Shown: piece after piece, positions 1 to 6,158 of the stretch
Position numbering within the stretch: the stretch's first letter is position 1
Layout of the letters: each line of letters starts with the position of its first letter
DNA from: Candidatus Woesearchaeota archaeon
Lineage (GTDB): Archaea > Nanobdellota > Nanobdellia > Woesearchaeales > UBA9642
Direction of reading: 5' to 3'
DNA: 64,000 nucleotides
Assembly: GCA_038884715.1 (NCBI GenBank)
Contig: JAWABG010000001.1
Span: 38,287-102,286 of the forward strand
Position numbers and translations under genes: made by a program
The notes under the pieces: model-generated
What the model was told of the DNA's origin: nothing
What the model saw: the letters and a program-made list of their open reading frames with translations, nothing else
The model's database searches: none

Positions 1-2736
1 GGTGAACCACCACCTTTAAAATATCTGACAAGATATGTTACATCAATACCATTAGTATTACAGTCACCATTTGTATCAATAGATAATAAACCACAATATG
101 GTGCTGGCTGATTTCCTTTAAAATAATTTATCATATAAGTAACATCCATACCATTTACAACTCCGTTACAATTCGCATCACCCGGAATAAAATAATCTAA
201 GACCATAACATTAAAGCGTGTGATTTCAGAATATTCTCCATCTGAAACTGTTATCTCAAAACTATAATTTCCTGAGCTCGTAAAATTTGTTGGCCATATA
301 AACAAATTATTATTAACAATAAATCTCGAATCATTTATTGAATAAATAAGATTATCGTTATCAGGATCGGTTGCATTAACAATTATTGTTACATTAAAAG
401 TTTCATTTATGACAATATCATTTATTGGATTTATAATCGGGGCCCGGTTTACATTTATTACGTTTATTTGGACTGTTTCTGTATCCCAGAATTGTCCATC
501 TGTGACATTAAATGTTACATAATAAATGCCTGCATCATTATATGTTGGTGTCCACTGAAAAAGTCCTGTTTCTTGATCAAAACTAAAATTACTTGGTAAT
601 ACGTCGTGGGCATTTGTAAAATAAGCTAATTGTTGACCGTTTGGATCTGTTGCTTGAATATGAATCAACAAAGTATCATTTTCATATATTATCTGATTTC
701 CAATTGGATTAAGTGTAGGCTCACCGTTACCGCTAAAATCTGCAAGAAGACTATATGTTTGAGGCGAGTATTGAATTGCGGCACTATTAATTCGTATAAT
801 CCATTGACCTGGTTGAGGATTATTAATTAATATTTGTTCTACGTTATTCCTGTTATCTATTCCTGTTGTTGCAGGCAAATTGGGATTTTCAGGATCCAGA
901 ATCCACGGCCGAAATATTTGCCCAGATGGACTTTCAAGCTCTAAGTCAAGATTATTAACAAGAGTTATATTGGTCTGAGGACTTGCTTGTTTATCATCCC
1001 AAACTAAAGTGACCTTTAATTCTGTTTTGTTATCTGGAACATTTAATAAATAAATATCTTGTTCACCACTATTAATTTCATTTTCTCTGATAATATTATT
1101 AATTCCATCATCTGCAATTATCAAATCAATTGCTCTTTGAATATTAATTCTTCCATAACCATATATGTAATCTGGTCCTGTGTTTCCTAGATCTTCTGCA
1201 GTATGATATACAATTGCCCTGACTGTTGAAGGTAAAGGATCTTGGTTGTAAAATTCATTATATTTCTCATAAATTAAAATAACAGAACCACTCACTGATG
1301 GCGCAGCATAGCTTGTACCACAATCTAAAATAATGTAGTCGTTCATATTATTACTTGTTGATTTTATTCCACCGTATGTTTTGCAGGAAGGAGCAGTAAT
1401 ATCTGGCTTTATTCTTCCATCTTTTGTTGGACCTCTACTTGAACCATCCCAAACAGTATCTGTATCAACATAAGTGCCTCCAACAGACAAAGAATTCTTA
1501 GCAGTTGCTATAGGACCAACAATCGTTCCAAAAGGAAAATTGGGAAGGTAAGACTGGCATAAATTGCAATCACCATCATTCCCTGCCGAACCTACAAAAG
1601 ACATTTTATTTCCAAAAATTCCTCTTGTAACTGAGTCAACAGTCACTGAAGTTGAAGTATACGATCCAAAATTATTACAGGGTAGTATGCATGCATTAAT
1701 ACCCCAAGAATTATGTGACACTTTTGCTTCATAAACATTTATTGCTTGATTAATTTCATTTGTGAGATTACCATACCAATCATAAGATACTATGTTGGGC
1801 ATTGTTGCTATTCCTCTCCATTGAAATGGAGTTCCTCCTCTATTCTCACTGTTTGTTCCATCTCCTGTCATGATTCCACAAACACTAGTTGGATGAGCTT
1901 GCATAGATCCTCCATCAGGTCTTGTTATTCTACTACCAAAATCTATATGATTTGCAACTGTTCCCTGATCCCAAATTGCAACAGTATATCTGTTTGCATG
2001 CAAATTGTATGGTTCCATTTGAACTTCGTTTGCATGAATAACTGCTCGAACTGTATCTACATTTGTAATCTTTTCAGGCTCGGGAGTGTCAATCCATTGC
2101 ACAGAATCTATACTTGCAAATTCAAAAATTTTGTCTGAACTAATTTTTAATTGCCAAACATTGTCGTAAATTATATCTGTTACTTTAAATGAATTCTTGT
2201 TAATACTATATTCATTAACAATTTTTTGAATATTTTCCTCCAAAATATCCTCAAAAAAATATGCAACAACAGTTAATTCATTATTTTTGGTTTTTTGCTG
2301 GATAATATTTTGAGAAATTTTATCATTTGGCAAGATATTGCTTATAAAACTAATTGTAGATAATGATTCAATATTTGGATTTTCAATCTTCACATACCAT
2401 GCATTGTTTGGTATATATGATAAGAGTTTTACTCCGTTTTTTTCTAATTCTAATTTTTCTTGTTCATTAAGTGCGTGATCAAATTGAATAAGGATGTGTT
2501 TATTATTGAACTGGCTGATTGAAGTATAATCGTTTTCTATTGTTTTTTTCTCTGTATTGATATATCTTGATGCTAAAAATATTTTATTTTTATCACTTAT
2601 TTGTTGGGTGTTTTGCGCGCTTATGAAAGGACAAATAGAAATTAGACTAACAAGTAGTATTATAACAAAAAATATTATAGTAAAAATTAATCTTACTAAA
2701 GTAATATCTTTATTTAAATATTTTTTATAATTCATT
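1..2736 (-). CDS. Subtilisin-like serine protease (peptidase S8), partial. Its C-terminus runs off the window start. Domains: N-terminal signal/TM, S8 catalytic domain, two cadherin-like (He_PIG) repeats, C-terminal dockerin.
   Basis: Manual translation of the minus strand from ATG at 2734-2736 (MNYKKYLNKDITLVRLIFTIIFFVIILLVSLISI...). Catalytic motifs: VAIWDQG (Asp), MQAHPTSVCGIMTG (His), GNDG (oxyanion Asn), GTSYAAPSVSG (Ser). TLVWDD beta-sandwich follows. Two cadherin-like repeats carry FDQETGLFQWTPTY and NATDPDNDNLIYS. The last 60 aa are a canonical two-segment dockerin: DANCNGVVNGMDVTYMINYFKG ... DTNGDCNTNGIDVTYLVRYFKGG. No stop occurs before position 1. Confidence 0.8.
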
Positions 2737-3098
2737 TTAATATATTGGTTAATCTTAGTAGTTTATAAATTTTTCGTCATTTTATAGTGGTTATGATTAT
2801 TTTCTGAAAAACTCATTAATCTATAACAAAAAAACGAAAATTTTGTCTTGTTATTATTGTTATTATTTTAATATAGTTATTACAGGATATATAAAGCCAG
2901 ATTAAGGTTTGAATAATTCAATTCATATTAAAATTTAGATGCTCATTAGTAACAAGAGAATTTTGTTTCATCATAAAATCTCGCATTAACAATATTTCAC
3001 TTTGACAGATTAAAAACAAACCAATATAAAATTAAAAAAGTTAGAATAATATGTTAAAAAATAAAAAATTTTAATAAAAAACGTTCTATTGTTGTTAT

Positions 3099-6000: not shown

Positions 6001-6158
6001 GAAGTCGATTTGTCTATTTTTGTGTCTGTTTCTGTTGATCTTTGTGTTAGAGTTTTGTTTGTCATTAAAACAATAATAGTTATACTCACTATTACTACTA
6101 TGGCTACAATTGTAACGATATATATTGAACTAATAGAATGAATTAGTCGTTTATCCAT
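3099..6158 (-). CDS. Membrane-anchored, repeat-rich surface protein. At least 7 dockerin-like (EF-hand Ca-binding) modules alternate with 9 Myxococcus-type cysteine-rich repeats.
   Basis: N-terminal TM: [32 protein letters not shown]. Nine copies of CGNGxIExGExCDDGNxxxGDGCxxxC (TIGR02232-type Myxococcus cysteine-rich repeat), e.g. [27 protein letters not shown]. These are interleaved with paired DxNxDGxxNxxDxxxLxxY segments, e.g. [24 protein letters not shown]...[26 protein letters not shown]. SD-like GTGAGGTG lies 7 nt upstream of the ATG. Confidence 0.7.
   Translation of the reverse strand: [1019 protein letters not shown]

Follow-up and report, generated by a model that had tools for sequence, protein, structure and literature searches.

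A Dockerin-Bearing Gene Pair in a DPANN Archaeon

We have analysed a stretch of 64,000 nucleotides (from here on, the window) of a contig from a Candidatus Woesearchaeota archaeon (JAWABG010000001.1), and have focussed on two adjacent genes at its start. One codes for a protein of 1019 amino acids (aa), predicted to sit in the membrane, in which eight dockerin modules are interleaved with nine cysteine-rich repeats; the other codes for a secreted subtilase of peptidase family S8 that ends in one more dockerin. The reading that we favour, and to which we give about even chances, is that the two genes encode a Ca2+-dependent surface adhesin or tether pair and not a polysaccharide-degrading complex. 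The host is a DPANN archaeon (Woesearchaeota), since the 1019-aa protein is 100% identical to MEM4259640.1 (NCBI) of a Candidatus Woesearchaeota metagenome-assembled genome (MAG), an entry whose public name is already “dockerin type I domain-containing protein”. The parent contig of this entry measures 129,970 bases, of which the window covers 64 kb. A first-pass annotation of the same DNA had proposed a non-cellulolytic complex resembling a cellulosome. We find that proposal partly supported: it was right about real dockerins in a non-cellulolytic setting, overstated their novelty, and named a candidate partner that finds no support.

The E-values of the hidden Markov models (HMMs) rule out chance for both kinds of module in the 1019-aa protein. 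Dockerin_1 (PF00404) scores 199.6 bits over nine stretches (E 6.9e-60), against a curated Pfam cut-off of 22.9; DUF4215 (PF13948) scores 125.9 bits over nine stretches (cut-off 27) and TIGR02232 (myxo_disulf_rpt, “cysteine-rich acidic repeat”) 245.8 bits, also over nine stretches (cut-off 20.8). A regular expression for the CDDGN/GDGC cysteine pattern likewise returned nine copies. We parsed 16 loop-plus-helix segments, that is, eight dockerin modules (Doc1 to Doc8), the two segments of each starting at aa 70/103, 287/320, 359/394, 547/582, 624/654, 789/822, 866/899, and 938/971, with the cysteine repeats starting at aa 139, 209, 247, 429, 461, 507, 684, 715, and 746. From the N-terminus the order is thus signal anchor, Doc1, three repeats, Doc2-3, three repeats, Doc4-5, three repeats, and Doc6-8, and the whole protein contains 76 Cys. 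The first-pass annotation had counted at least seven dockerin pairs, one of them directly behind the membrane anchor, which agrees with our eight modules and with the start of Doc1 35 aa past the hydrophobic segment. It had also described nine cysteine repeats in regular alternation with the dockerins; the number holds, and the arrangement is one of blocks (1-3-2-3-2-3-3) and not one-to-one. No cleavage motif of the A-x-A type was seen by inspection of the N-terminus, and the hydrophobic segment probably acts as an uncleaved signal anchor that would leave the remainder of the protein extracellular. The features of this gene, all on the minus strand, are as follows.

3099..6158 (-): gene of the 1019-aa multi-dockerin/Cys-repeat protein, putatively membrane-anchored (ORF, Pfam, TIGR02232)
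6063..6125 (-): N-terminal hydrophobic segment (ca. aa 12-32), following a basic MDKR (hydropathy window aa 4-38, mean Kyte-Doolittle value 3.26)
5763..5963 (-): dockerin module 1 (aa 66-132; Pfam, EF-hand_7 also matches)
5331..5744 (-): Cys-rich repeats 1-3 (aa 139-276), DUF4215/TIGR02232, CGNGxxExGExCDDGNxxxGDGC, with a Pro/Thr/Ser linker within (HMMs)
4875..5312 (-): dockerin modules 2 and 3 (aa 283-428; Pfam)
4539..4874 (-): Cys-rich repeats 4-6 (aa 429-540; TIGR02232)
4110..4532 (-): dockerin modules 4 and 5 (aa 543-683; segment parse), with an extended second loop (17 residues) in module 4
3819..4109 (-): Cys-rich repeats 7-9 (aa 684-780; TIGR02232)
3150..3806 (-): dockerin modules 6, 7, and 8 (aa 785-1003; AlphaFold2, Foldseek, phmmer)

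The S8 subtilase lies just downstream. Its reading frame is open to the start of the window, with 911 aa visible, and at most about 9 aa are missing, as the 908-aa orthologue in the syntenic locus L001 aligns with window aa 27-910. The catalytic triad is intact (D256, H281, and S475, in the motifs WDQG, HPTS, and GTSYAAP) and invariant in an alignment of three orthologues. A PPC-like domain was matched below threshold (Pfam), and the signal peptide is predicted from its sequence to be cleaved between ISA and Q.

3..2735 (-): S8 subtilase gene, secreted product (911 aa visible, Met at 2735)
2616..2735 (-): signal peptide (aa 1-40; hydropathy window aa 7-43)
1152..1988 (-): Peptidase_S8 catalytic domain (aa 250-528; Pfam PF00082, E 2.7e-30)
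234..719 (-): two beta-sandwich domains, He_PIG (aa 673-759) and Big_9 (aa 763-834; Pfam)
18..185 (-): C-terminal dockerin (aa 851-906; Dockerin_1)
2736..3098: spacer of 363 bp between the two co-oriented genes, with no open reading frame (ORF) of at least 80 aa inside

Run on both proteins, as the first-pass annotation had proposed, the Dockerin_1 model exceeds its curated cut-off in the protease as well (31.8 bits). A PDB search with the last 69 aa of the protease found 23 chains at E <= 1, each of them either a dockerin or a cellulosomal protein with a dockerin (best E 1.8e-5), in agreement with the earlier description of this C-terminus as a two-segment type I dockerin. Its two segments, DANCNGVVNGMD-VTYMINYF and DTNGDCNTNGID-VTYLVRYF, are nearly identical to each other (NGMDVTYMINYFKG, NGIDVTYLVRYFKG). 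The loop motif given for them earlier was correct overall, except that position 6 of the second loop is Cys and not Gly.

Among the Pfam matches of the window, where the scan took in all 42 ORFs of at least 150 aa, there is no glycoside hydrolase, carbohydrate-binding module or other CAZy-type family, and the S8 protease is the only dockerin-tagged enzyme. This, together with the DPANN host, bears out the non-cellulolytic setting.

True Dockerins with Bracketing Cysteines

All 16 segments of the 1019-aa protein and both segments of the protease follow the two-segment dockerin pattern, which calls for Asp or Asn at loop positions 1, 3, 5, 9, and 12 and a helix behind. The canonical 12-residue Ca2+ loop with its helix is found in 10 of the 16, and the other six loops are longer, with insertions that bring them to 13-17 residues. 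We aligned 20 dockerin modules, those of three multi-dockerin orthologues together with the S8 dockerin, and all 20 have Asp at positions 1 and 12 of either loop. Alignment positions 3, two residues ahead of the first loop, and 67, behind the last helix, are each occupied by Cys in at least 90% of these modules, several of which carry two to four extra Cys at fixed places. The Ca-ligand Asp and the Cys residues are retained in orthologues of 66 and 48% identity.

We also modelled aa 785-1019 (Doc6-8) with AlphaFold2, on the basis of an alignment in seven rows of module pairs, orthologous as well as paralogous. The model (mean pLDDT, i.e., predicted local distance difference test, 79.7) predicts the topology helix, short helix, helix three times over. 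When it was compared with the PDB by Foldseek, the top 31 matches were all dockerins, the first three being the double dockerin of the Clostridium thermocellum S8 protease Clo1313_0689 (8X39/8X3A; best E 1.4e-4). Single dockerins matched with target TM-scores of 0.6-0.83 and root-mean-square deviations of 1.4-2.6 A, while calmodulin received a Foldseek probability of 0.01. By sequence, phmmer with modules 6-8 found 4dh2_B (E 4.2e-7) and 8x39_A (E 7.5e-7). A reading of these segments as generic EF-hand loops is rejected on these grounds, namely the Dockerin_1 scores above the Pfam cut-off, the match of the fold to dockerins and the negligible probability for calmodulin. Judged by HMM and modelled fold together, the modules are real dockerins.

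The two termini of a dockerin lie near each other, and the Cys pair that brackets the modules is conserved; we therefore predict from the alignment a disulfide that ties the two ends of a module together. Such a bond would be a covalent version of the intramolecular “clasp” that occurs in some dockerins, as described in PMC12484212, which is a further reason for the prediction. At the positions where classical type I dockerins contact the cohesin (10/11 and 17/18), the 16 segments of the 1019-aa protein all differ. This heterogeneity, set beside the near identity of the two S8 segments, suggests several different ligands or none for the 1019-aa protein and a symmetric type-I-like site for the protease.

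Relatives, Synteny and Distribution

The interleaved dockerin/DUF4215 layout is known in three proteins, i.e., the one in the window, P0002 (66% identity, from a Logan assembly) and P0121 (48%), which is partial, its ORF being open to the contig end. A homologue search gave thousands of proteins that bear the repeat (6907 matches), and among the best 120 of these the precomputed Pfam annotation has Dockerin_1 alongside the repeat only in P0002 and in the window protein itself (P0001). The multi-dockerin gene precedes the S8 gene, in the same orientation, on three independent contigs, those of the window, of L001 (64-66% identity) and of L004 (48%), the S8 orthologues being 64% (L001) and 48% (L004) identical to that of the window. 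The two genes are 95 bp apart in L004, and in L001 two further genes lie between them. With L001 the synteny extends upstream to a CARDB and an RPA-like gene, the CARDB protein being 36% identical (L001 2..550).

A scan of the genome contig collection with the S8 protease found no relative. In the metagenomes, a scan with the S8 alignment gave 33 loci with 21-47% identity (best segment), and some of these proteases (L008, L010, L011, and L012) carry one or two dockerins. None of the 33 loci has a multi-dockerin/DUF4215 neighbour gene, which implies that the gene pair is confined to a close clade.

The dockerin modules themselves are far more widespread. A profile of the 20 aligned modules, searched against 1.84 billion cluster representatives, matched 37,481 proteins at E <= 1e-3 and 177 at E <= 1e-30, and the best 150 of the 37,481 have 3-45 matched stretches each. 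We scanned 46 of the top matches with Pfam. All of them contain Dockerin_1 and eight also contain Peptidase_S8, while neither Cohesin nor DUF4215 is among their 25 most frequent families. Those top matches that come with source names are MAG proteins of Parcubacteria/Patescibacteria and Omnitrophota. We found no literature linking dockerins with the biology of Woesearchaeota or DPANN, and the top-ranked Patescibacteria papers do not discuss them.

A Putative Surface Attachment Pair

Starting from the domain identities, fold, layout and conserved gene pairing described above, we infer the topology, disulfides, Ca2+ binding, adhesion and cooperation of the two proteins as follows. The 1019-aa protein would be held in the membrane by its N-terminal signal anchor, and its ectodomain would form a beaded stalk of eight dockerins, grouped 1-2-2-3 and offering up to 16 Ca2+ sites, in which three triplets of small disulfide-rich DUF4215 repeats would space the dockerin groups and almost every dockerin would be locked by a disulfide between its bracketing Cys. 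With dockerins acting as Ca2+-dependent protein-binding modules, the protein may work as a multivalent tether or adhesin, its scaffold made up of plugs instead of sockets. The secreted subtilase would be tethered to a surface by its C-terminal dockerin, and stalk and protease would cooperate, be it at the envelope of the archaeon itself or at a host cell. The receptor would be encoded outside the window, either as a cohesin-like module elsewhere or as some other ligand.

Several observations are in favour of this proposal. Both proteins have N-terminal hydrophobic export segments by hydropathy. The flanking genes, in a DPANN host, code for pilin-like, Cys-rich surface and peptidoglycan-directed products (detailed below), which fits a cell-contact lifestyle. 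The named top-scoring multi-dockerin proteins come from other ultra-small lineages (Patescibacteria/Parcubacteria and Omnitrophota). The HMM scores and the fold match, the retention of the Ca-ligand Asp and of the bracketing Cys in orthologues, the gene order shared by three contigs, the eight of 46 top matches with Peptidase_S8 and the adhesin role suggested for the Omnitrophota dockerins (PMC10066038) also count for it.

There are also points that weigh against it. Neither the window nor the syntenic locus L001 (16.5 kb) yielded a cohesin. The heterogeneous contact positions would suit many different partners, and would suit the lack of any specific partner equally well. Canonical Ca2+ coordination could be impaired by the insertions that six of the 16 loops carry. 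The adjacency of the two genes is limited to a narrow clade, and the episymbiotic lifestyle of this organism is assumed from its lineage.

Cohesin is the only established ligand of dockerins, which speaks for the first of the alternatives below. Searched with the cohesin model (PF00963), a check that the first-pass annotation had proposed, the 42 ORFs of the window gave no match, nor did ten proteins of L001 and the window around the syntenic locus. Around P0122 (locus L003) there are N_methyl pilin-like genes, and none for a cohesin. Another candidate for a cohesin, the CARDB protein at 8093..9004, was rejected by inspection, its N-terminal region of 140 aa being Cys-rich and without a Pfam match.

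One alternative is a classical, non-cellulolytic cohesin-dockerin self-assembly, in which the nine dockerins would be bound by cohesins encoded in the same genome outside the window, giving a defined multi-protein complex at the cell surface of the archaeon itself. There is room for such genes, as the window is 64 kb of a contig twice that length, and specific archaeal cohesin-dockerin pairs are on record, including scaffoldin-like proteins with up to five cohesins in anaerobic methanotrophic (ANME) archaea (PMC9012536). The modules are dockerins by both sequence and fold, and the near-identical segments of the S8 dockerin resemble type I dockerins with a dual binding mode (2VN5/2VN6, going by the titles of these entries). 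All the same, the lack of a cohesin among the window ORFs and the L001 proteins, the absence of Cohesin from the 25 most frequent families of the 46 top-scoring multi-dockerin proteins and the heterogeneous contact positions across modules make us regard this alternative as unlikely.

Slightly less probable still, in our estimation, is a purely structural role. The dockerins would then be partnerless beads, stabilized by Ca2+ and disulfides, that stiffen and extend a surface fibre in the manner of TSP3 or cadherin-linker Ca sites, and the dockerin of the protease would be a stabilizing C-terminal module. The abundance of Cys in the 1019-aa protein and the conservation of those that bracket the modules would suit such a role, as would the variation of the contact positions from module to module, the failure to find a cohesin in the window ORFs or L001 proteins, the additional EF-hand_7 score of Doc1 and the name of the top-scoring relative P0139, labelled by its source only “Ca2+-binding EF-hand superfamily protein”. 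However, the fold is specific to dockerins among EF-hand proteins (Foldseek), the usual arrangement for targeting a secreted enzyme is one dockerin at its terminus, and the recurrence of dockerins with S8 proteases (8 of 46) suggests a shared targeting function.

The first-pass annotation had placed the missing partner in the giant proteins encoded at 24743..34943, and the idea that these are the cohesin-bearing scaffoldins of a cellulosome-like complex fares worst. We believe it to be very improbable, for although the three giants are large, exported, about 20 kb away and on the same strand, and although a very divergent cohesin could escape notice in the 1130-aa giant (24743..28135), whose AlphaFold2 model, made from an alignment with the single orthologue detected in a homologue search, is unusable (pLDDT 29.6), a Pfam rescan of all three at E <= 10 gave no Cohesin and only weak TSP3_bac and CarboxypepD_reg matches, phmmer of each against all PDB sequences, which include many cohesins, gave nothing at E <= 1, the apparent beta-rich units of the 1130-aa giant measure ca. 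95-105 aa by eye against some 140-150 aa for a cohesin, the other two giants are Cys-rich, and all three come last in a series of pilin-like genes, the 946-aa giant (32103..34943, minus strand) having itself a class III (pilin-type) signal peptide with the start MQKRGQFTIF. Self and cross BLASTP found no tandem internal repeats in the three giants or in three other large exported proteins, so that none of these proteins has the tandemly repeated modules of a scaffoldin.

The 1130-aa giant (minus strand, NCBI locus tag QXG00_00330) consists of an N-terminal hydrophobic segment, a beta-rich ectodomain, a Cys-rich region and two TSP3-type Ca2+-binding repeats (DSDNDGLPDWWE), followed by a C-terminal transmembrane helix at ca. 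aa 801-823 and a Lys/Glu-rich tail of 300 aa. It also has a weak, sub-threshold match to the Amuc_1099 family of a pilus-like system.

Comparison with Known Systems

Neither several dockerins in one polypeptide nor a dockerin on a protease is as unusual as the first-pass annotation had implied. Fusions of subtilisin and dockerin were catalogued in 2008, one of them from Halobacterium, an archaeon (PMC2605481); structures have been solved for an S8 protease of C. thermocellum that bears a double dockerin (8X39/8X3A; Chen et al., 2024, cited after PMC12484212); triple to septuple dockerins have been reported (PMC12484212); and a giant ORF of Omnitrophota has nine non-cellulosomal PF00404 dockerins that “may serve as adhesins” (PMC10066038). 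To these can be added the at least 150 cluster representatives with 3-45 modules found here.

One of the closest systems is the C. thermocellum protease, Clo1313_0689 (dDoc_0689), which is also an S8 subtilase with dockerins, arranged in tandem in one chain, and whose double dockerin is the best fold match of the tandem modules of the window as well as a sequence match. Its proposed role, according to PMC12484212, is the anchoring of the protease at the cell surface. It differs in being bacterial and part of a true cellulosome with known cohesins (ScaD), and in having both dockerins on the protease, whereas in the window one is on the protease and eight are in tandem on a separate, putatively anchored protein. 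Neither the Cys repeats nor the Cys bracketing of the 1019-aa protein is present in it.

The non-cellulosomal dockerin proteins of Archaeoglobus fulgidus, Halobacterium (Subt-(Dockerin_1)2, NP_280653.1) and ANME are archaeal and non-cellulolytic like the pair in the window, and include dockerins fused to proteases and to surface proteins (PMC2605481; PMC9012536). They have one dockerin module as described, often together with cohesins, and none is from DPANN. The scaffoldin-like proteins of ANME are built the other way round from the multi-dockerin protein of the window, with a single dockerin and as many as five cohesins (PMC9012536). The giant ORF of Omnitrophota and proteins of Patescibacteria/Parcubacteria (MBI4122260.1, MFA6587510.1, and MFA6908492.1), with 3-45 dockerins in one exported protein, belong to lineages with reduced genomes, have a proposed role as adhesins and are the highest-scoring relatives of the window modules. 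They are however bacterial, and their dockerins are accompanied by PG_binding_1, the CshA repeat, Flg_new, FG-GAP, or S8 in the same chain.

The Cys-rich repeat has relatives of its own. Proteins of Myxococcota with DUF4215/TIGR02232 contain the same repeat as the nine copies of the 1019-aa protein, and human pappalysin-1 and -2 have a single copy. Within the block of repeats 4-6 (aa 429-540), repeat 5 aligns with residues 865-920 of human pappalysin-1 (E 1.4e-9 to 8a7d_C), and pappalysin-2 also aligns. The repeat is visible in cryo-electron microscopy structures of PAPP-A (8A7D, 7Y5N, and 7UFG), so that an experimental structure of DUF4215 already exists.

With the bacterial cellulosome the pair shares the use of the same dockerin family in what would be an extracellular assembly. 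Cohesin, scaffoldin and glycoside hydrolase were not found in the window, and the polarity is inverted, in that the putatively anchored, repetitive protein bears dockerins and not cohesins.

Genomic Context

The window has a G+C content of ca. 30% and encodes the large and small subunits of PolD, a fused PriS-PriL primase, SecY, and a ribosomal protein cluster (Pfam). The primase is a single protein of 494 aa at 52460..53944 (minus strand) that matches both the PriS and the PriL families. Every one of the 42 ORFs of at least 150 aa is encoded on the minus strand, an extreme and uniform bias over 64 kb, and the GC skew is negative in 31 of 32 windows of 2 kb (cumulative -4.7).

Between 12424 and 34943, on the minus strand, at least 12 genes have class III or type IV pilin-like signal peptides (a basic stretch, KKG/KRG/KKS, and a hydrophobic helix), for example those at 17696..17941, 17987..18229, 20568..21497, 22807..23835, and 32103..34943. 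Most are without a Pfam match, and by its sequence the region looks like a large gene cluster for a pilus or surface appendage. Closer to the gene pair, the minus strand at 8093..9004 codes for a membrane-anchored protein of 303 aa with the Cys-rich region of 140 aa mentioned above and a CARDB domain. Two exported enzymes of peptidoglycan type follow, a 688-aa protein at 9148..11214 (minus strand) with a weak match to SLT lytic transglycosylases (E 0.011, motif AMQESKCG), and a 385-aa D-Ala-D-Ala peptidase of the VanY/Peptidase_M15 type at 11248..12405 (minus strand; 28 bits, above the cut-off). In an archaeon, two exported enzymes that apparently target peptidoglycan may point to a bacterial host or prey. 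There is one SpoIIM-family membrane protein in the window (57730..58671), and three paralogues are found just downstream of the S8 gene in L001 (11654..16417).

Implications

Multi-dockerin surface proteins outside cellulosomes and dockerin-tagged S8 proteases were known before. What is new here is the DPANN host, the interleaving of dockerins with DUF4215 repeats (in three proteins), the bracketing of the modules by Cys and the conserved pairing with an S8 gene (on three contigs). Should a cohesin be encoded elsewhere in the genome, the pair would be one more archaeal non-cellulosomal cohesin-dockerin system, of a kind that is already known.

A broader idea, which we put forward as speculation and think improbable as a whole, is that multi-dockerin proteins are a shared attachment device, cohesin-independent or host-directed, of ultra-small episymbionts (DPANN, Patescibacteria, and Omnitrophota). 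The version of Woesearchaeota would then be a membrane-anchored “reverse scaffoldin”, with eight disulfide-clasped dockerins that grip proteins of the host surface, and the subtilase encoded alongside, with its own dockerin tag, would be brought to that surface in order to remodel it.

The attachment of DPANN archaea and other ultra-small symbionts to their hosts is little understood, and dockerins are among the best-understood high-affinity protein connectors. If our proposal is true, disulfide-locked dockerins would be added to the toolbox of designer protein scaffolds, and, if the pair does mediate attachment, it would provide a concrete and testable handle on the contact between symbiont and host.

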